Part shown: positions 1 to 12,790 of the stretch, piece after piece
Position numbering within the stretch: the stretch's first letter is position 1
How the letters are laid out: every line of letters starts with the position of its first letter
DNA from: Candidatus Bathyarchaeota archaeon
GTDB taxonomy: Archaea; Thermoproteota; Bathyarchaeia; Bathyarchaeales; Bathycorpusculaceae
Length of the DNA stretch: 64,000 nt
Assembly (NCBI GenBank): GCA_963717465.1
Contig: OY970340.1
Span: 1,056,001 to 1,120,000 of the forward strand
Reading direction: 5' to 3'
Program-made: the position numbers and the translations under genes
Notes under the pieces: model-generated
What the model was told of the DNA's origin: nothing
What the model saw: only the letters and a program-made list of their open reading frames with translations
The model's database searches: none

Positions 1-917
1 GAAGGAGTCGGTTTCACTGCGACTCTTACAATTAATGGCATACCACTTGATAATCCACCCAATATGCCACCTGCATTATTAGTTAGAGTTGTTACCTTCC
101 CGTTCTTTACAGTGTAGGCGTCATTGTTTTCTGAACCCTTCAACTCAGCAGCTTTAAACCCAACTCCGAACTCCACACCTTTAACGCTTGGAATGGTGAA
201 CAATATTTTAGCGATATCCGCATCTAAAGAATCAAACAAGGGGTCACCGACACCAACTGGAACATTCAGAGCGATGCATTCGATTGTTCCACCAACGCTA
301 TCGCCATCCTTCTTAGCTGCAACGATTGCTTCTTCCATTTTCTTTGCAAGCTTCAAATCTGGACAGCGAACCGCTGAAGAAAAAGTGCTGTCGCGAATTT
401 CCTCAACACTCAGTGACTTGTCCATTTTCACTGTGCCAATCGATTTTGTATAAGCGTAGACTTCAACGTTGACTTTGCCAAGAAGCTTCTTAGCGATGAC
501 ACCAGCCAAGACCAGTGCAACTGTTACTCTTCCGGAAAACCTTCCGCCACCACGATAATCATTAAAACCACCATACTTTAAGCGGGCAGGATAATCCGAG
601 TGACTTGGCCTTGGCAAATCCTTAATCTCCTCATAAGCGCTCGAATCAACATCCTTATTCTGCACTGTCACACATATTGGAGCGCCCGTTGTGAATCCAT
701 TAAAGACTCCTGAAAGTATTTTTGCGGTATCCTTTTCAGTTCTTCCTGAAACGATTTTCTGCTCTTTGGGAACCCGCCTATCAAGCTCAATTTGAAAATC
801 AGTTTCAGAAAGTGAAAGCCCAGCTGGGCAGCCATCTACCACAATGCCGACAGTTTTGCCGTGGCTTTCCCCAAAAGTGGTTACAGTAAATTCTTTACCT
901 ATCGAATTTCCCGCCAA
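1..917 (-). CDS. aroC: Chorismate synthase (3' end runs off window)
   Basis: Manual translation from TTG at 917: MAGNSIGKEFTVTTFGESHGKTVG; contains PRPSHSDY and RGGGRFSGR motifs; absent from ORF track because truncated. Confidence 0.95.
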   Translation of the reverse strand, partial: MAGNSIGKEFTVTTFGESHGKTVGIVVDGCPAGLSLSETDFQIELDRRVPKEQKIVSGRTEKDTAKILSGVFNGFTTGAPICVTVQNKDVDSSAYEEIKDLPRPSHSDYPARLKYGGFNDYRGGGRFSGRVTVALVLAGVIAKKLLGKVNVEVYAYTKSIGTVKMDKSLSVEEIRDSTFSSAVRCPDLKLAKKMEEAIVAAKKDGDSVGGTIECIALNVPVGVGDPLFDSLDADIAKILFTIPSVKGVEFGVGFKAAELKGSENNDAYTVKNGKVTTLTNNAGGILGGLSSGMPLIVRVAVKPTP

Positions 918-2199
918 CAACCTCAGCTCCTATACTGCTTAAATCAGTAAAGAATTGCGGATAAGATTTTCTAACGCATTCAGCATCCTGAATCTTGGTT
1001 TCTCCATTTGCGCGCAAAGCTGCAACTGCACAAGCCATCGCGATACGGTGATCATTATGCGGATCAATGATTGCACCATGCAAGTTGCATGAACCTTTAA
1101 CCGTTAGGCTGCTTTCAATAACATCTATTTGCGCTCCCATCTTTTCTAACTCAACACAAATGGAAGACAACCTATCAGACTCCTTAAACCTAAGTCTATG
1201 AGCACCATATATTTTAGAAGTACCATTAGCAAAACATGCAAGCGCCGTTAAAACCGGCACGAGATCAGGAATATTCTTTGCATCCAAATTCAACGGCATG
1301 AGCGGATTGGTAGACCCTTCAACCCTAACTTTGCCCTTACTCATTTTTTCCTTTACACCCATTTGTTTCAAAATGTCCAAAATAACTTTATCGCCTTGAA
1401 GAGTCTGATAATCAAGATTGTTAACCTGCACCTCTGAATCTGTTATTGCAGCAGCGGCTAAAAGAAAAGCAGCTGACGAAAAATCGCCAGGCACCTTGCA
1501 GTCAGATTGCTTGTAAATTTGGCGTGAAGGTATACTAATGCTTCTAAAATTATCTTGGAAATCAACCTTCACCTGATGCATTGCCAGAACCTCTCGTGTC
1601 ATCTTAACGTAATCTTCAGACTCCAATGGCGATGTAAGCGTTACTTTAGTTGGTTTTTTTGCCATCGGGCATGCAAACATTAGGCCTGAAACGAACTGGG
1701 AACTCACATCTCCAGGCATAGACGTTTCTCCTCCATTGATTCCGCCACCGCTAACGATCAGCGCGGTTTTATCGGAGATTCTTTCTTGAGTAACTTGTAC
1801 TCTTAAATCATTGAGGCTTTTCAGTAAGGGTTCAATGGGTCTTTTCTCTAAGCCTTGTCCAAGAATAAACGTTGAAGCACCCGATGCTAATGCTGCAATG
1901 GGTATCATGAATCGCAAGGTGGCTCCAGATTCACCACAGTCAATCGGTTCCTTTGCCGCAGTAAGCGAATTAGTGCCTTCAACAATCCAGGCATTTTTTG
2001 CAATCTTTACTTTCGCGCCTAAAGCGGTAACAGCGCGTAGAGTGGCTGAAGTGTCCTCAGACAAGAGTGGATTCATCACTTTTCCAGGGCCATTTGATAG
2101 AGAAGCGGCTATGAGCATTCTTTGAGTGTAAGCTTTCGAGGAGGGCGCATTGACGGAACCATTTAGTTTCAAGGTTTTCTTTACAATCACGTTAGTCAT
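895..2199 (-). CDS. aroA: EPSP synthase (3-phosphoshikimate 1-carboxyvinyltransferase)
   Basis: PSSKA, DCGESGATLRF, SSQF, PGDFSSA, KESDR, DHRIAM, KSYP motifs. Confidence 0.97.
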   Translation of the reverse strand: MTNVIVKKTLKLNGSVNAPSSKAYTQRMLIAASLSNGPGKVMNPLLSEDTSATLRAVTALGAKVKIAKNAWIVEGTNSLTAAKEPIDCGESGATLRFMIPIAALASGASTFILGQGLEKRPIEPLLKSLNDLRVQVTQERISDKTALIVSGGGINGGETSMPGDVSSQFVSGLMFACPMAKKPTKVTLTSPLESEDYVKMTREVLAMHQVKVDFQDNFRSISIPSRQIYKQSDCKVPGDFSSAAFLLAAAAITDSEVQVNNLDYQTLQGDKVILDILKQMGVKEKMSKGKVRVEGSTNPLMPLNLDAKNIPDLVPVLTALACFANGTSKIYGAHRLRFKESDRLSSICVELEKMGAQIDVIESSLTVKGSCNLHGAIIDPHNDHRIAMACAVAALRANGETKIQDAECVRKSYPQFFTDLSSIGAEVVGGKFDR

Positions 2200-2202
2200 G
2201 AG

Positions 2203-3072
2203 CTAGAGCACCGTTGCTTTTGAATTGTTCAAATTCGCTTGCAGAATTTCGCCCTCATAACTTTTCATCGCCGCAATTACAGGTTTGACTTTATTCTTAG
2301 GTGCAAGTGCTGTTATCGCTGGTCCTTTGCCGCATAGTCCTGCTGCAACGGCTCCTGCCGCTAAAGCATCCAATGCTATGGTAGTGTCGTATCCTAAGGC
2401 TGAAGAATAAATCAAACCGTTAAGCGTTAACGCTTCTAGGAAGTTGCCTTTTAAGGCTTCGTTGTAGGCGATTTCAACAAGTGGCTTAACAGTTTGCAGT
2501 CCAGCAAAATTGGATTGTGCAGTGTAAGATTTTTTGGGTGGAACATGAAACAGCACAGTTAAATCGCTCGGCAACGGGAACTGCTTAACTATTTCTCGTT
2601 TCGAGTTATCAGTAACTAATGCTCCGCCAAAAAATGAAGCGCATGCATCATCAAAAGCTCCTGTAACCGTGACATTGGCATCAAAGGCCGCTTCAACACC
2701 TAACTTTACAACTTCTAAATCATCCAGGCTCTTGCCTAAAGCGCCAAGGGTTGCGAGGGCAACGGCGTTTGCGGCGGCACTGCTACTTTTTAGTCCTCTA
2801 GCAATGGGAATGTTTGAGTAAGTTTTCACTTTGGCACCATACTTATTTTCTAACCCGAATCGTTGCAGTATTCTCAGCACAGTTTTTTTGGTTAGAAGAG
2901 TGTTTTCTTTTGGATCTGAAGTGATTGTTGCTTCCACATTTTTTGGGTCATCGGTTAATTCTAATTCAGCTTTAGTCCATAAGTCAACTCCAAACGCGGC
3001 ACCCTTTCCTAAGGCAATTGCGTTAACTATCGTTGCTGCACCGTAAGATATTGCAACTGCTTTTCCCGCCAT
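2203..3072 (-). CDS. aroK: Archaeal GHMP-type shikimate kinase
   Basis: ATIVNAIALGKGAAFG N-terminus, PIARGLKSSSA GHMP motif, VTGAFDD; operon context. Confidence 0.93.
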   Translation of the reverse strand: MAGKAVAISYGAATIVNAIALGKGAAFGVDLWTKAELELTDDPKNVEATITSDPKENTLLTKKTVLRILQRFGLENKYGAKVKTYSNIPIARGLKSSSAAANAVALATLGALGKSLDDLEVVKLGVEAAFDANVTVTGAFDDACASFFGGALVTDNSKREIVKQFPLPSDLTVLFHVPPKKSYTAQSNFAGLQTVKPLVEIAYNEALKGNFLEALTLNGLIYSSALGYDTTIALDALAAGAVAAGLCGKGPAITALAPKNKVKPVIAAMKSYEGEILQANLNNSKATVL

Positions 3073-3075
3073 TTT

Positions 3076-3930
3076 TTACACCTTTAAATGTTCTAATGCT
3101 GCTTGTCTCATAACTTCGATTGGTGCTGGCTGAGACGTCCAGATTGTGAAGGATGCTGCACCTTGGTAGATTAGCATTTCAACGCCGTTTACAACTTTGG
3201 CCTTTGCCTTTTTCGCGTCCCTTATCAGTTTTGTTTCAACAGGATTATACACAATATCCATCACTACTAAGTCAGGTTTTAGCCATTCAGCCGCAACTAA
3301 ACTTTGGTCAACGTTTGGTTTCATTCCCACTGAAGTAGCATTAACAAGAATATCCGACTCCTTAAGGCTCTCATGCACATTACTTGAGGTAAGCGCTTTG
3401 GAAACAATTTTCTTATTCACATTTCGCCTTAAAACTGCCGCTAAATTTTCTGCCTGTTTACCAGTCCGATTTAAAATTATCAGTTCACCAACTTTTTGAG
3501 CCAAACTGTACGCAATGGCTCTTGCAGCCCCACCTGCTCCAAGCAAAAGCAACTTTTTCCCTTTTAGATTCACATCGTTTTTTTCCAAAGCCCTTAATGC
3601 GCCAACTCCGTCCGTGTTAAAACCGCAAAGCCTACCATCCTTGTTTAGAATCGTGTTAACGGCATTTAGTGATTTGGAAGTTTGATCAATTTCATCTAAA
3701 TAATTAATTACTGTACTTTTATGAGGCATTGTAACGTTTAACCCGTGAATGTCTAATGCACGCATGCCTTTCAACGCGTTTTCCACGTTTTCCTTTTTTA
3801 CTCTAAAGGCTAAAAAAACATAATCCATTTTTAAATGGTCAAATGCTGCATTATGCAAGATGGGGCTTAAACTGTGCTCTATCGGGTCACCAATAACTCC
3901 GAACAAGCGTGTTTTTCCCGTTATACCCAT
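3076..3930 (-). CDS. aroE: Shikimate dehydrogenase
   Basis: GDPIEHSLSP, NVTMPHK, NTDG, GAGGAARA, NATSVGM, DIVYNP. Confidence 0.97.
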   Translation of the reverse strand: MGITGKTRLFGVIGDPIEHSLSPILHNAAFDHLKMDYVFLAFRVKKENVENALKGMRALDIHGLNVTMPHKSTVINYLDEIDQTSKSLNAVNTILNKDGRLCGFNTDGVGALRALEKNDVNLKGKKLLLLGAGGAARAIAYSLAQKVGELIILNRTGKQAENLAAVLRRNVNKKIVSKALTSSNVHESLKESDILVNATSVGMKPNVDQSLVAAEWLKPDLVVMDIVYNPVETKLIRDAKKAKAKVVNGVEMLIYQGAASFTIWTSQPAPIEVMRQAALEHLKV

Positions 3931-4615
3931 TCATTTTAACCCCAAAAGGTCGATTGCATCTTTCATTTCTTGAATAGTCATTTGTCCTGGTGCAGTATGT
4001 TTGTCTTTTTCGATTGAGGCAAACGTGAAGAATGCGCCGAAAGTTGGGGAGAGAAGTCTTGAAACTTTGCCCTGTTCCCCCATGCAGAAACAAACAAGTT
4101 TTGTCTTGCTTGAGTTTGCGGAAATAAAATTTAGGGATTCCAAATTGTCTTGGCTTTTTCTTGCAGTCGTTACAATTTTGCAGATACTTGCTCCGCTGAG
4201 CGATTTCTTTTTCAAGAATTCCGTTCATTTCTTCAATGCTTAGTGGTCCATCATAATTATGGTGAGAAACAATCGATTCAGCGCCTAACGCTTTCATTTC
4301 TTTAACTAGTTCCTTAAGCTTTGAACTCTGCAGGTTCAAATCGACGTAGTTAAAACCTGCTTTTGCCGCTTGGATTAACGTTTGGTTTCGTTGCGTTTCA
4401 GAACCTGAGAAATAGCCTTTTTCGCTTAACATTTTGTTTGTGGCGATTAAGGGAATTTTGGTGCTTGCTGGGAGGTCTGATAGTTTTCGCGAGTTTTCCA
4501 GTTTGTCCATTCTTACTTCGATGAAGTCTGCGTGTGCTTTTTCTGCCTTCTCGATTAGATTCTGTGCTTCAGATATGTCTTTGGGAAGAATTGACACGCA
4601 GATTCTGGTTGTCAC
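3931..4615 (-). CDS. aroD: Type I 3-dehydroquinate dehydratase, split by one frameshift near 4195
   Basis: ADFIEVRMD and SHH in the first ORF; CKIV...MGEQGKVSRL...APGQ in the second. Confidence 0.9.
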
Positions 4616-5653
4616 TTTTCAATCACCATTTCTTCAGGGACGGATACGCCGAAGTGTCTTCCTCCTTTCGCGGCTAAATGCACTAAGACTTCATCGTTTG
4701 GTTTTAATTCTGTTACAGGTTTTGAACCGCTGGGAGTTACTACACAAATGGTTTCTGCGTTTTGAAGTATGGTTTTGATTTTCGTGTTGTTTACTTTGGC
4801 TTCAACTAATATTAAGGGTCGGAATTCAATTTTTGACCTTCCAACGTTCGTAATTCTAACTTTTCCTTCTCTGTTCACAACTAAGACTTCATCGCCAGCT
4901 TTCAATTCAGAGAGGTAACGAGTATTCTGAAGCGACGTAAGAGTATACTGCGATGCTGGTCCCGCGTTAACACGGAACGGTCTTGATGCAACGTAAGGGT
5001 TTTCGTTCACTTCCGCTTCAACTAAAAAGAAGCCTGCTGATTGGCATCCGACAAGCATTCCTTCGCCTGAAGACATTAAGTCGCAGGTGTCAACGCAAAC
5101 TCTTGCTCCGGAACTAATCGGTTTGATTGCTAAGACTTTGGCGGCTACTAAGATAACTTGCGGATTTATGGTTTTGACAATATTAATAGTCTTTGAGAGC
5201 TCGTCTGGAATCTTGGTTTCCAGTAAAACGCCGTCTGTTCCAAGTTCCAGCGCTTCAAGAACAAGTTTTGCGTCCTGCGCTGTCGTGACATGAGCGATTA
5301 GTTTGCTTTTTCCTCGTTTTTTAGCGATCAGGTTTTCTAATGGAATTACTCGCCAATCAAGACAGTTTATGATTATGTAATCAACTTGAAGTTGGGCTGC
5401 TTTTGCTGCTTTGTTTTCGTCTTCTTTTCCTTTAATGACTTATTTGAATGGCGGTTTTTTTGCCTTCGTTTTTTAATTGTGCAATGTTTTTTTCGTTTAG
5501 GTCAGCAAGAAAAGCTATTTCCTCTTTGCCATTTCGGCTTATTGCTTGCCCGTTTTCAAGGATTACATCTGCGTTTTCATTGGCAAGGCTAAGTAATGCT
5601 TCTTTATCCTTTTGTGAATCAACCTGTGTTATTTCAAACCAGAGTTCCTTCAA
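4612..5653 (-). CDS. aroB': 3-dehydroquinate synthase II (archaeal type), frameshifted in the 5' half
   Basis: MKELW start; WRVIPLENL, LELGTDGVL and ARVCVDTCD read manually; RPFRVNAG, YLSELKAGD, KIEFRPL, GRHFG at C-terminus. Confidence 0.9.
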
Positions 5654-6442
5654 TTGCTTTCACCAAGCAATTTAAGCGCTTGATCAACAGAGACTCCATC
5701 ATGAACTATGCTTTTAAGTGCCTTAGCTATTAAAGCAGGGTTTTCATACTGGAAAATGTTTCGTCCAATGGTGAGTCCTGCTCCTCCAGCTTTTATCAGA
5801 GTCATGGGCTGTTTGAAGAATTTCTTTGGGCGTTTTGCATTTTGGTCCTCCTGAAATAACTACTGGTACCGGACAGCTTTCAACCACTGCCTTGAAGGTT
5901 TCTATGCTGCCTGTGTAGTTTGCTTTTATTATGTCTGCGCCTAGTTCTGCTCCTATTCTCGCTGCGTGTGCAACAAGGTCTGGTGCATGTTCATTTTGTA
6001 TTTTTGGTCCTCTTGGGTACATCATTGCAAGTAATGGAATTCCGTATGCTTCGCATTCTTCGGCTACTTTGCCGAGGTTTTCAAGCATTTTTTCTTCATC
6101 TTGTGCGCCCACGTTTACGTGTACTGATACTGCGTCTGCGCCGATTCTGATGGCTTCTTGAACTGTGCATACTTGGGCTTTGCTGTTTACGTTTGGGGCT
6201 TAAGTTGGACAGACCTGATAGCATTACGATTAATCCTGCGTTTTTTGTGTCAACTATTTTTGCTATGCCTTTGTGGACAAGTACTGCGTCAACTTGTCCT
6301 TCTACGAGTTGGTTAATTATTTGCTGCATGTTGCCTATTCCTTGAACTGGGCCGATTGTTACACCGTGATCCATCGGAACGATTATGTTCGGTTGTCTTG
6401 CTGCATGATTCTTTTTAATCTGCGAGTTTTTCCTGAGTTCAT
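5650..6442 (-). CDS. aroA': 2-amino-3,7-dideoxy-D-threo-hept-6-ulosonate synthase (DhnA-type aldolase), about three frameshifts
   Basis: ATG 6442 [38 protein letters not shown]; ends [10 protein letters not shown] at 5650 overlapping the aroB' start. Confidence 0.88.
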
Positions 6443-6457
6443 TTTTTTTTCAACCTT

Positions 6458-7712
6458 TTATTTTTGTTTTCTTAATGAGTTTTTGATTAACTTGAGTGCT
6501 TCTTCCTTTTCATTCCAGTCTACAAAGAGTAGAATGCTTGATGTAATTGTTAATATTCCTGATATGTTTATGCCGTTTAATCTAAGGTCTTCGCTGATTT
6601 TTCCAATTATGCCATGTGTTTCTTCAAGCCCAACACCGCTTGTTTTAATGAAAACAAGGTCTTTTTTGACTGCCATCGCTATAGTTTCAGAGTGGCTTAT
6701 TGTTATCTTGTGGATATCGTTGAAGAGAGCGCTTAGATTTTTTTCTTTTTCCTGTGAAACATAGAGTATGGCGGAGTTTGTATTCATTGACATGCCTAAA
6801 AGTTGCGTGTGCTGTTTGACTTTTTCCGCCATTTCCTGTATGATTTGCGGGTTTGCGGATAATCCGTTTCCAACCACGGTTATTTCAGCAACTGGTGAAT
6901 CATGTGCGATTTCAGCGTCAAGTTCGGTGGCTAACCCACCTGTTATTATGCGTTCCTTCTTGCGTGAGGTTGCCCTGAGAATTACTGATCACTCGAACGT
7001 TGATGTTTTTAGGTTTGTACTTTAAGGCTTTGGTATGGATGAATTTCGCTCCTGAGTCTGCTAAGCCAACTAATGTGCTAACGTCGATTTCACTTAGTTT
7101 TTGTGGGGTTTTTACAATTTTTGGATCAGAGGACATTATGCCATCTGCATCAGTTACTAAAACTATTTCGTTTGCGTCCAATGCTTCGGCGATTATGAAT
7201 GCAGTTGTGTCGCTTCCCCCTCTTCCGAGAGTGGTGATTTTACCGTCTTTGGTTTTCCCTAAAAAACCTGCAATTACAGGTATAATGTTCTTTTCAATTA
7301 TCGGCTGGATTGCTTGGTTAATATTTTTTTTGCATTCTGTGAGGATTGGATTTGCGTTTTGGAATGTTGAGTCAGTTATTATTGGCCATTTGTCATCAAT
7401 TGGGTCGAAGTAACAGGCGTTTACACCGTTAGTCTTAAGCGCTGCAGCAAATATCCGCACACTGGTTCGCTCACCCATCGAGAGTATATCATCTAAATCA
7501 TGTTTTTCGAGTTTACCATTTGAAGTGTTTTTTGCTGTGGTCATGAGTATGTCGGTTGTCTTGCCCATTGCTGAAACTACAACGGCTATCTGTGTGCCTT
7601 TTTTTGCCTCATTCACTACGGCAACTGCAGCCTTGAGTAATTTTTCATGGTCAGCAAGGCTTGAACCGCCAAATTTAACCACAATTTTTTTGTTAGAATT
7701 ATTTTTTTCCAT
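6458..7712 (-). CDS. lysC: Aspartate kinase with C-terminal ACT domains, one frameshift near 6950
   Basis: VVKFGGSS, VVVSAMGKTTD, TLGRGGSD; ACT-like second ORF 6458-6877. Confidence 0.9.
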
Positions 7713-7730
7713 AAGTTACACCCATGCTTT

Positions 7731-7764
7731 GCCCAGAACTTTTCTTAAAACTTAAGTTCTGAGC
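7731..7764 (-). promoter_or_regulatory. 11-bp RNA hairpin between leader peptide stop and lysC ribosome-binding site
   Basis: Minus strand GCUCAGAACUU-N12-AAGUUCUGGGC, 10 Watson-Crick pairs + 1 G-U. Confidence 0.6.
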
Positions 7765-7827
7765 TTAAGGAAAATAATAATAAAAGCAGTATTCGAAGCT
7801 AAAGATATGATCTGAATTCGCTATCAT
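7765..7827 (-). CDS. Putative Phe/Tyr-rich leader peptide MIANSDHIFSFEYCFYYYFP (20 aa)
   Basis: ATG ATA GCG AAT TCA GAT CAT ATC TTT AGC TTC GAA TAC TGC TTT TAT TAT TAT TTT CCT TAA; directly upstream of the aromatic biosynthesis operon. Confidence 0.65.
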   Translation of the reverse strand: MIANSDHIFSFEYCFYYYFP

Positions 7828-7880
7828 TTCTTGAGTTAATAGACATTGCTTCGAACCTGCAAAAAAGACATAGCCTTCAA

Positions 7881-7896
7881 AATATAAGCGTTTCGG
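7881..7896 (-). promoter_or_regulatory. Candidate BRE-TATA promoter of the lysC-aro operon
   Basis: Minus strand CCGAAA-CG-CTTATATT; predicts a start near 7860. Confidence 0.5.
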
Positions 7897-8098: not shown

Positions 8099-9187
8099 CT
8101 ATTTTTTCCCCAGCTTTGTCGGCAAGTATTCGTCAACGATGTACGTCAACCCGTAGCGGCTGAAAGCCTCTTGTTCTGCCTTGCGCTTGATTTTAAGGAA
8201 TAGTTTGATTTCTCGTTGCCAGAGTGGATCATCCTGGTATCTTGGGTCTTTCTGCAACTCGTAAAGTCTTTTGATGTCTACTTCGTCAAGTGGGTCCGTG
8301 GGTAGCTTGTATTCAATTATGTCTGAAGCCCAAACTCCACTCCAAACCGCATCAGGAGTGTTCAATTCTCGCAAGTGTGCCGCATTTGCTGAACCTGAAA
8401 TAATAACTTGGGCAATATGCATTCCCCATGGGTCTCCATCGGTTAAAATGTAAACTGGCAAGTTTAGTTCATCGTGAAGTCTGCGTATAAAGCTGCGGGT
8501 TTGTCTTGGTGCTTGACCACCACAGGAAATTAGCATGGCCTTGTGCTTGTTATGAACGTTTTCTTCAATAAACCGTGTGAACAATGCACCTTTCTCAATT
8601 GCGATTACTTTGTCAGCTTTTGTATTGATGAATTCGGCGGAGGTTAAAGCTGGGCCGATGAGAACGCCGTCTGGGTGACTTGTCAAGTTTAAGGTCCTTC
8701 CTTCGTAGCCTGGGACTGTGTAGCTGATTGTTAAATCTCCAAAAATTGCAGAGCGCTCTTCAGGAAAAATGTGAAAGTCTTCACGAGCAAACCCTGTTAG
8801 CGTTTCTAGATCAGTTATGATGTTGTTTGATTCCTGTTGGTCAGTGAACGTCATCTCGTATGCTTGAGCTGAATAATAGACATCTCTTAAAGTCGAAGTC
8901 TTGCGTTGCGAAGTCAACTCGTTACTGAACATTGCAGCCCACGCCAACTGTGTAAAAGGCTTAATATGTCGAATGTTCCGTGCGCTTCGGCTGACATTCT
9001 TTTCTCCTAAAACATACTGGCGCAATACAGGATCAAAATTAATGTTCTCTGTCGAACGGCTTGGCATATTAATAGTCGGAAAGACTCCTTGGTCAAGCTG
9101 ATTATAAATTTCCGTGCCAAACTTCTTTAGGCCTCCAATGACCTCATTTTTTCTCTCTACAATTTTAGCTTTCTTCGTCTGCGCCAT
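8099..9187 (-). CDS. top6A: DNA topoisomerase VI subunit A
   Basis: TLRDVYY catalytic Tyr region, IEK and DGDPWG TOPRIM motifs, EQEA. Confidence 0.96.
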   Translation of the reverse strand: MAQTKKAKIVERKNEVIGGLKKFGTEIYNQLDQGVFPTINMPSRSTENINFDPVLRQYVLGEKNVSRSARNIRHIKPFTQLAWAAMFSNELTSQRKTSTLRDVYYSAQAYEMTFTDQQESNNIITDLETLTGFAREDFHIFPEERSAIFGDLTISYTVPGYEGRTLNLTSHPDGVLIGPALTSAEFINTKADKVIAIEKGALFTRFIEENVHNKHKAMLISCGGQAPRQTRSFIRRLHDELNLPVYILTDGDPWGMHIAQVIISGSANAAHLRELNTPDAVWSGVWASDIIEYKLPTDPLDEVDIKRLYELQKDPRYQDDPLWQREIKLFLKIKRKAEQEAFSRYGLTYIVDEYLPTKLGKK

Positions 9188-10712
9188 ACTTTTGCACACT
9201 CTTCAATAACTTTTCAATATCAGGGATTTTCTTTTTCCCAGCTAACATGGATGAAAACTGGGCAATTCTAGGCAAATACTTGCTGAAAATTCCAAGTCGC
9301 TTCTTCTCCATGTGCACATGTTCCTGTTTTGACAGGAAATGCTGTAGTTGACGAGCAACTTCACGCAGTGCATTTGCCTCTTCTCTTCGAACTTCAGGTC
9401 TGTCAGCAATGAATTCTTTCCCAACTGTTTTGTACGGAACTTTTGTGCTGCAAATATGAATGACAATGGCAATCGGCATGTCGGGAGTCACCTTGTAGCG
9501 GCGCCAATTTATAGCAGAAATAACCTTGAAGGAAACGTCACTGGCTTCATCATACAAAAGGGGAATCTTGTTGGCAAATCGGTAAATCATAAAATTTCCT
9601 TGTTTAGGCACATCTCCGCCATAAGCAACTGCCATTTCAATTATGAATGGATGACCCGCATAAGTTGACGGTTTACGTTGATGAACCACGAGGTACTCAG
9701 GTTTTAATTCCTTTATCACACCTGCCTTTAACAATTCTTCACCCAATGGTGACAAGCAACTTGCATCAGGCGGCAAAAAATCTTTGAATTTTTTAAGATT
9801 TTGCATCAAGCGCACTATTTCTTCATGCGTCAATTTTTTAGGATTCTTGCTCGGAGGCAGGGCGCTGAACTCTAGAAATTTTTGGGCTGTAATTTCACCT
9901 ACTCGGTGAAAATGTCCCTTCAAAAATTCCAGCATGTTACTGTAAGGAGTAATCTGGATTAGCCGTTGAAGCAACTCTACGTCAACACCGTACGGATGTG
10001 GAAGAGTTTCCTTAGGCGGCTCAGGCATGTCAGTTGTTGCCCGAGTGAACTTGTACAACCTGCCTTTTGGATCAACAAATGTTAGGTTCGCATACGGGTT
10101 AACCATGGCTGTTTGCTTAAAATACTCCAGAATCTTAGGCATAGCCCGAAGGTAATCGCCTTCTATCGTAAATTCAACTATTGTTCCCCGCCAATTGTCC
10201 TTGTTAATCAAGACTTTTCTATCCAAGATTATTGGGCGGTTGCGTTGAATGTCAATCATCAACTTGAAACTGTAAATTTTCGCTTGCCCCGTGCTGGATG
10301 TAACTGTCACGGGTTGATGGGTAGTGATTTGACCGTACAAAACAGCCATTTTGCCACCTAAGCCGAATGTACCCCTCATCTGCTTAAGCTTGTATTTGGA
10401 GCCGTAGAGGACTTGTCCAAAAGCTGAAGGAATAAAACGTGGCTGAATACCTGAACCATTATCTTGAACACGTAGCTTGTAAATTTGGGTTTCCTTTGTT
10501 GCTTCACTCTCAAAAGATAAACGAACATAAATGTCAGGCGGAATTTTCTGGCTTTCTGCAGCGTCCAGAGAGTTTTCAACAATTTCTCTAATTGCTACGA
10601 ATATTGCACGTGAAGGATTTGTTAAGCCAGCGATGTCTCGATTTCGATAGAAAAAGTCAGACGCACTTATTTCTTCAAATGTTGTTGCTTGAGCCACTTC
10701 TAGCCTACACAC
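9165..10712 (-). CDS. top6B: DNA topoisomerase VI subunit B (start probably GTG near 10697)
   Basis: EIVENSLDA, DNGSG, RGTFGLG GHKL motifs; RFANKIPL; KVPYKTVGKE. Confidence 0.96.
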   Translation of the reverse strand: MCRLEVAQATTFEEISASDFFYRNRDIAGLTNPSRAIFVAIREIVENSLDAAESQKIPPDIYVRLSFESEATKETQIYKLRVQDNGSGIQPRFIPSAFGQVLYGSKYKLKQMRGTFGLGGKMAVLYGQITTHQPVTVTSSTGQAKIYSFKLMIDIQRNRPIILDRKVLINKDNWRGTIVEFTIEGDYLRAMPKILEYFKQTAMVNPYANLTFVDPKGRLYKFTRATTDMPEPPKETLPHPYGVDVELLQRLIQITPYSNMLEFLKGHFHRVGEITAQKFLEFSALPPSKNPKKLTHEEIVRLMQNLKKFKDFLPPDASCLSPLGEELLKAGVIKELKPEYLVVHQRKPSTYAGHPFIIEMAVAYGGDVPKQGNFMIYRFANKIPLLYDEASDVSFKVISAINWRRYKVTPDMPIAIVIHICSTKVPYKTVGKEFIADRPEVRREEANALREVARQLQHFLSKQEHVHMEKKRLGIFSKYLPRIAQFSSMLAGKKKIPDIEKLLKSVQKYGADEES

Positions 10713-12721: not shown

Positions 12722-12790
12722 TTACCATTCTTCTTCTTCCCATTCTTCATCTTCGCCTTCTTCCCATTCTTCGTCTTCTTCAAATATCAT
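12722..12790 (-). CDS. Acidic Trp-repeat microprotein MIFEEDEEWEEGEDEEWEEEEW (22 aa)
   Basis: Perfect SD GGAGGTGA at 12801-12808, 10 nt before ATG; TTTAAA box at 12846-12851; clean reading frame. Confidence 0.7.
   Translation of the reverse strand: MIFEEDEEWEEGEDEEWEEEEW

Follow-up and report, generated by a model that had tools for sequence, protein, structure and literature searches.

A conserved Phe/Tyr-rich leader ORF as a candidate ribosome-based sensor upstream of the aromatic amino acid operon of Bathyarchaeia

We analyzed a stretch of 64 000 nucleotides (hereafter, the window) from a Candidatus Bathyarchaeota archaeon (GenBank assembly GCA_963717465.1, contig OY970340.1, positions 1 056 001 to 1 120 000). 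An operon making aromatic precursors, as proposed in the initial annotation, was borne out on its reverse strand (–), on which all features of the operon described below lie. It begins with the aspartate kinase gene lysC (6458..7712, with a frame break near 6950 in the assembly) and continues with aroA' (ADH synthase; 5659..6440, in three pieces), aroB' (3-dehydroquinate synthase II; 4612..5700, with an approximate 5' end and the N-terminus in a different frame), aroD (3931..4615, in two frames), the shikimate dehydrogenase gene aroE (3076..3930), an archaeal shikimate kinase gene (2203..3072), aroA (EPSP synthase; 895..2199) and aroC (chorismate synthase; 1..920). Past the window edge it extends to an aminotransferase and prephenate dehydrogenase (tyrA; G000 C1:1055563-1053567); these and aroC were named by likeness to the operon of a relative. 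The order in relatives is lysC-(asd)-aro-tyrA. A putative promoter box (7882..7896) consists of a BRE-like element (7896-7890) and a TATA-like element (7889-7882), and the same box is found in relatives. A Shine-Dalgarno (SD)-like site at 7719..7724 presumably serves lysC.

Several neighboring features were also observed. A pheA-like ORF, named from its translation, lies nearby on the opposite strand. The gene for topoisomerase VI subunit A and that for an apparent B subunit are located directly upstream (8099-10712, –) and end 200 nt before the promoter box. Farther away, a short and very acidic ORF (12722-12790, –; MIFEEDEEWEEGEDEEWEEEEW) precedes by 108 nt an ABC-ATPase gene of RLI/ABCE1 appearance, and is possibly the tail of a disrupted gene.

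Between the promoter box and the lysC initiation codon (ATG 7712), we confirmed the 20-codon ORF reported earlier at 7827-7765 (–), MIANSDHIFSFEYCFYYYFP, which carries four Phe and four Tyr codons among its last 12 codons. Its proposed start at 7827 did not hold, because relatives conserve an ATG at 7846 instead, 43 nt 3' of the TATA box of the window. The 20-codon ORF (7765..7827, –) is the C-terminal part of a leader ORF, opened by a non-conserved ATG; by comparison with relatives, the leader ORF itself runs from the conserved ATG 7846 to the stop codon at 7767-7765 (7765..7846, –) and is one base out of frame in the assembly. Its block of Phe and Tyr (F/Y) codons, the candidate sensor, spans 7771..7803 (–). 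In the window, the frame from ATG 7846 stops after 15 codons, one base off the frame of the F/Y block. This offset occurs in the window alone among 89 distinct orthologous loci. Contigs of four DNA runs were consulted for this indel alone, and two contigs of runs X3 and X4, from related organisms (depth ~3, <90% identical), have one base fewer at 7823. In addition, when compared with the proteins of a relative, lysC, aroA', aroD and tyrA each occupy more than one frame here, and the first 84 residues are absent from the aroB' match. Taken together, these observations make an assembly insertion likely; the 7827 start most likely arose from a one-base error of the assembly (an extra base near 7823), with a true strain change as another possible source of the extra base. 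Frequent single-base frame breaks were observed between 4000 and 7700 (in lysC, aroA', aroB' and aroD, and also in ilv/leu just outside), and such breaks in housekeeping genes are typical of an unpolished long-read assembly.

When the 39 bases of the last 13 codons were shuffled, eight or more F/Y codons were reached with P ~0.001. A scan of the genome for short ORFs rich in one residue was noisy (511 rows), and the window ORF tied the top F/Y count among the matches listed.

We then compared the locus with its relatives, of which the closest named ones are Bathyarchaeia records, including Ca. Bathycorpusculum species. A first set of 110 loci comprised 92 distinct loci, and 89 orthologous loci were retained after three paralogues were set aside. 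Starts were chosen without regard to frame (in L025-L027, as the first ATG at least 40 nt past the TATA box). The ATG that opens the frame in relatives lies a few bases past a conserved motif and 42-49 nt 3' of the TATA box, and it was in frame with the F/Y block at 88 of the 89 orthologous loci, the exception being the window, although these loci are kin and such counts overstate their independence. Leader lengths were 24-29 codons, and in the 85 loci scored the ATG was separated from the block by 42, 45 or 48 nt and by no other distance. The N-terminal two thirds of the leader vary freely in sequence while keeping the frame and avoiding stops: in this variable part, there was no stop among 1251 codons, compared with 27 and 54 per 1166 codons in the other two frames. 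Conversely, F and Y accounted for 62% of the last 13 codons but for 15% and 12% in the other frames. The block used both synonymous codons of each residue (TTT 185, TTC 133, TAT 249, TAC 137) and persisted in G+C-richer genomes. Conservation had been named beforehand as the decisive test, and the frame, the aromatic block with its synonyms and the spacing were all kept class-wide.

A second set supplied 84 more distinct loci, 67 of which had at least five F/Y codons among the last 13; the remaining 17 comprised one truncated locus, six aspartate kinases (48-51% identity, no aroA' nearby) and 10 loci bearing the cassettes described below. Among 156 leader loci in all, aroA' was within reach in 114 and not in 41, and one locus was cut short. 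The next gene in the 41 was asd in 38 (36 by motif and two by eye) and aroB' in three, and two operons without aroA' in reach, when read out, were both aromatic operons. From a class draw of 301 genomes, 97 of which had the matching lysC type, 40 were taken for family spread, partly overlapping the earlier loci; they comprised 26 leader loci, 10 cassette loci, and one locus each that was borderline (four F/Y), truncated, ambiguous or neither. The leader was missing before aspartate kinases in other gene contexts (3/3 and 6/6), and no leader preceded two Hadarchaeota aspartate kinases located in a dap context.

Folding of 47 leaders with RNAalifold revealed two helices, A and B. Helix A pairs bases before the leader ATG with the Ser-Phe-Asp/Glu codons; by folding comparison, its 5' arm in the window (7848..7854, –) adjoins the ribosome-binding region of the leader, and its 3' arm (7793..7799, –) covers Ser-Phe-Glu codons. 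Hairpin B (7731..7764, –) begins immediately 3' of the stop codon, with a U-run in its loop and a U-rich 3' arm. For both helices, 97.9% of cells paired and 9 of 17 pairs were invariant, with two-sided changes at three pairs, all in B; the seven pairs of helix A had 99% of cells paired and no two-sided change. The near-invariant core sequence of the hairpin may point to another partner or a protein. The window RNA folds in the same way as those of its relatives (z –2.8). Directly after the stop, a hairpin of unrelated sequence reached z ≤ –2 in 63/67 more distant loci and in 22/26 leaders of the class-wide sample. The Bathyarchaeum-type group yielded no helix A, for which z ≤ –2 was obtained in 46/151 loci overall. 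By eye, the bases before the leader ATG in the Bathyarchaeum-type leaders (L213-L258) show complementarity to the 5' arm of B, a possible alternative structure in these leaders.

With modeled ribosome footprints, the 9 nt past the stop were 0.91 paired when the ribosome was at least four codons upstream and 0.08 paired when it was one codon before the stop, a loss that is partly built into the ribosome mask. We found no conserved alternative partner for hairpin B among the folded leaders; B itself varied with the modeled ribosome position. Paired U was concentrated on the 3' arm (724, versus 175 on the 5' arm), which was the richer arm in 144/151 loci. A U-run of at least four was present in 116/151 spacers, but such runs barely stand out because A-runs of at least four were nearly as common (99/151). 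The distance from the leader stop to lysC is 41-74 nt, and hairpin B fills this spacer to 6-8 nt before the SD site of lysC; in the genus of the window, an A/G-rich spacer follows the hairpin. No terminator hairpin with a U-tail was found by a bacterial promoter/terminator scan, whose range does not extend to the promoter type of the window, and no Rfam cis-regulatory family (T-box, leaders) matched near its gathering score, two chance matches lying far below it.

Cognate codons were also found before other biosynthetic operons. Upstream of trpE (G000 C1:1260351-1260332 (–) in the source genome; L040, L151-L175, L316-L335), a six-codon start ending in NTT-TGG is conserved, and trpE lay in the +1 frame of this start at 23 of the 24 loci with a covered N-terminus (5/29 were uncovered). 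In 14 of 23 loci, the trpE frame contained no ATG, GTG or TTG within the first 130 nt, and at one locus without the Trp codon trpE was fused in frame. Across the class, the pattern occurred in 18/20 loci, all +1, and translation apparently enters trpE through a +1 shift of frame at the NTT-TGG (Trp) pair. Upstream of hisG (G000 C1:1029767-1029951 (+); L179-L208), an NTT-CAY module was present in 28/30 loci and a second, +1-frame module in 27, and the final frame was open, stopping between –10 and +11 of the hisG start, in all 27 loci scored. Upstream of ilvB (G000 C1:1044685-1044828 (+); L039, L121-L149), Leu/Ile and Val modules were present in 29/30 loci, with slippery pairs that differ from the NTT type; the +1 frame stopped between –5 and +10 of the start in 28 loci and at +20 in one. 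The shifted frames of his and ilv thus end on the gene start; the stop of the window-type leader is 41-74 nt short of lysC. Upstream of dapA, argG, the thr cluster, ilvD, leuC, lysW and three PF00682 synthases of the source genome, inspection by eye yielded no obvious cognate leader. In L151-L175, palindromic TGTAC...GTAC boxes were observed ~90 nt before trpE, just 5' of the trp promoter; because they recall the TRP box bound by TrpY, a protein may also control the trp operon.

The same arrangement occurs on the aromatic operon itself. At the 10 leaderless lysC loci of the second set (aroA' next in four, asd next in six), three five-codon modules follow one another, with Phe, Tyr and Trp as their respective last codons, and each is preceded by an SD-like motif. 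The +1 frame runs on into lysC without interruption at 10/10 of these loci and likewise at 10 loci of families f26 and f35. In these two families, Phe, Tyr (and Trp) five-codon cassettes replace the F/Y leader (L301-L311 except L305, L347-L350, L352, L358-L360, L373 and L375). In other words, the same aromatic operon is preceded by cognate codons in two architectures. From these reading frames, we infer frameshifting at the trp, his, ilv and aro cassettes.

The conserved leader, the hairpin, the cassettes on the same operon and the similar cassettes carrying their own amino acid at trp, his and ilv make cognate ribosome sensing likely. We consider it very probable, as judged from comparative sequence evidence, that the leader acts in cis as a translated sensor of Phe and Tyr (charged tRNA-Phe and tRNA-Tyr) for the aromatic operon. 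The initial annotation had suggested a Phe/Tyr-sensing attenuator: the conserved frame and cognate codons support a sensing leader, whereas an attenuator in the bacterial sense was not supported. Because neither a U-tailed terminator hairpin nor a consistent SD switch was found, the output step is put forward below in conditional terms.

The enterobacterial leaders pheL (of pheA), trpL and hisL are leader-peptide transcription attenuators. The present leader resembles them in its short ORF rich in codons for the product, in the RNA helices that overlap and follow this ORF and in the biosynthetic operon downstream. Unlike them, it belongs to an archaeal host with a TATA/BRE promoter and lacks an intrinsic terminator hairpin with a U-tail; we found no alternative of the 2:3 versus 3:4 kind, and the single post-stop hairpin would be the ON state. 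We did not file it in the pheL/trpL/hisL family because the terminator feature fails. In the prfB +1 programmed frameshift, an SD-like motif precedes the slippery codon. The cassettes of trp, his and ilv, like those of aro in two other families, share this SD-like motif and combine a slippery codon with a slow codon in the A site, but the slow position is taken by a sense codon for the product of the pathway; the leader of the window has no SD-like motif and, in at least one family, is not of the prfB type.

The papers cited by identifier here and below were available in part, and statements drawn from them refer to that part. RF2 autoregulation is named in PMC5009743; the archaeal cases of frameshifting given there concern viruses and magnesium chelatase, frameshifting at pheL is described as incidental, and no mention of trpE was found in the available text. 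Mycobacterial polycysteine sORF attenuators (the 'ribulon') are leaderless and free a sequestered ribosome-binding site (10.1101/834739). They are similar in that stalling at cognate codons governs a downstream operon without an intrinsic terminator and several operons share this logic, and, as far as they are described there, differ in the release of the ribosome-binding site, which our folding test did not reproduce. TrpY and Tar/TK0271 control archaeal aro/trp genes in response to amino-acid supply (PMC6737238), as is predicted for the leader; unlike the leader, these are DNA-binding proteins that act at initiation, and the part of the paper available describes no leader ORF. FttA/aCPSF1 termination shares the U-rich nascent RNA signal and a proposed link to uncoupled transcripts, and no amino-acid-regulated use of a leader was found in the available text (PMC11616081). 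Ribo-seq papers, in the parts available, mention archaeal uORFs in general terms and no amino-acid sensor (PMC11456600, PMC10117724, PMC7261190). Our literature search, with most subscription papers and supplements outside its scope, found no archaeal amino-acid leader attenuator and no trpE/hisG frameshifting.

We propose the following output. If Phe or Tyr were short, a ribosome would stall in the F/Y block at least four codons before the stop; hairpin B would then fold and mask a U-rich FttA/aCPSF1 termination site, and the operon would be ON. If both were plentiful, a ribosome at the stop would occupy the 5' arm of the hairpin, leaving the loop U-run and the U-rich 3' arm single-stranded behind RNA polymerase; FttA/aCPSF1 would cut this exposed RNA, and the transcript would end at about the lysC start (OFF). 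In the family of the window, helix A would slow re-loading of the leader. The source genome contains a match above the cut-off to arCOG00543/TIGR03675, which we take to be FttA/aCPSF1. An FttA terminator is described as RNA from –1 to –36 with a preferred U at –23 and U-rich positions from –30 to –36 (PMC11616081, in the part available). The ~35 nt from the loop U-run to the lysC ATG fit this spacing loosely, and these U positions would place cleavage in the 3' arm as the polymerase arrives at the start of lysC. In archaea, polarity can probably be ascribed to FttA, and coupling weakens past 30-40 nt (PMC12548453, likewise in part). On the other hand, FttA might be kept off by the very ribosome that sits at the stop, which counts against this output; steric exclusion of FttA by the ribosome is a hypothesis in the available text of PMC11616081. 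That U-runs scarcely exceed A-runs is a further point against it. Gating of FttA/aCPSF1 termination by a stall-plus-hairpin leader is consequently a tentative reading, which we hold at slightly less than even confidence.

Other readings share the leader but differ in its output. Melting of hairpin B could free its 3' arm to cover the ribosome-binding site of lysC, with polarity following, as in the mycobacterial poly-Cys leaders. The hairpin does reach to 6-8 nt from the SD site, and L026, L027 and L211 have a pyrimidine tract able to pair with that site; however, in equilibrium folding, SD access showed no net change under ribosome masks (mean change 0.01; a rise at 38 and a fall at 32 of 151 loci), and in the genus of the window both the 3' arm and the SD site are G-rich. 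We regard this translational output as unlikely. A somewhat weaker candidate is a hungry-codon frameshift, in which a ribosome would slip at TTT-TAY, miss the stop, run through hairpin B and end at the lysC start, where re-initiation would occur. The TTT-TAY pair is present in 85/88 leaders but in only 3/10 leaders of other types. In 100/109 loci of the hairpin type of the window, a shifted frame stays open almost as far as lysC, and the +1 and +2 frames are open in 58/89 and 67/89 loci, compared with 32 and 25.5 predicted from shuffled spacers; yet beyond position stop +12 the shifted frames are open even where a ribosome cannot reach, so this openness is in part a by-product. On the same operon, sister families carry +1 cassettes, and the his and ilv leaders of the source genome appear to be coupled in this way, but the internal SD-like motif of the cassettes occurs in 0/151 leaders. 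Furthermore, either frame is open in just 7/32 Bathyarchaeum-type loci (neither in 25/32), the +1 frame ends 7 nt past the leader stop in 23/32 of them, and both shifted frames are closed in the window. Of two related schemes, a double +1 shift, first at Tyr and then at Phe, that would bring ribosomes to lysC fits the genus of the window but fails in the Bathyarchaeum-type group and in the window itself, and we retain it only within this minority reading; read-through or fusion in one fixed frame is ruled out by the stop-to-lysC distance, which modulo 3 is 0, 1 and 2 in 47, 10 and 31 loci, respectively.

Arrest by the nascent peptide is known from TnaC. Here, a peptide of the form S-F-x-Y...F-P-stop would halt the ribosome at the stop at high free Phe/Tyr, with hairpin B open (OFF). 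The length (~23-29 codons) and a motif resembling S-F-[DEG]-Y are conserved, and Pro is the last residue in 50/151 leaders; the last residue is another one in 101/151, the order of F and Y differs between families, and many cognate codons are a trait of sensors of tRNA charging, which leaves this arrest improbable. Slightly more remote is a small trans-acting peptide, or an RNA motif alone with an incidental frame. Base-for-base conservation of both helices would suit such an RNA, but the freely changing N-terminal two thirds keep the frame and avoid stops, and the codons match the products of the operon; moreover, two families swap the leader for cognate-codon cassettes, the leader is missing before aspartate kinases elsewhere, and no Rfam match came near threshold. 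Finally, U-rich DNA encodes F and Y, and the ORF as first drawn had a non-conserved start, as expected of a chance ORF; this explanation is refuted by the class-wide conservation of the frame and the F/Y block, and its probability is negligible.

Amino-acid-sensing leader peptides are textbook bacterial devices. To our knowledge, Archaea end transcripts by U-tracts and FttA and not by terminator hairpins, and hence an archaeal attenuator must have a different output. The 170-base element bears on the control of FttA termination by ribosome position and on coupling as a means of regulation in Archaea. Archaeal aromatic-operon controls found in print are DNA-binding proteins (PMC6737238, in the part available), and the leader would be ribosome-based. 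The replacement of the leader by a frameshift cassette in two families suggests that sensing has been under selection more than once. It is possible, and we hold this somewhat less firmly than the FttA-gated output alone, that Bathyarchaeia possess a ribosome-based regulon for amino acids in which one operon is served by two interchangeable modules that dispense with bacterial terminators: a stall leader gating FttA and a 15-base hungry-codon +1 frameshift cassette, fused or coupled to the first gene, whose sensing codon is swapped for each pathway (Trp, His, Leu/Ile/Val, Phe/Tyr/Trp). If true, this would mean attenuation via a CPSF73-type nuclease, together with programmed frameshifting as a general amino-acid sensor.
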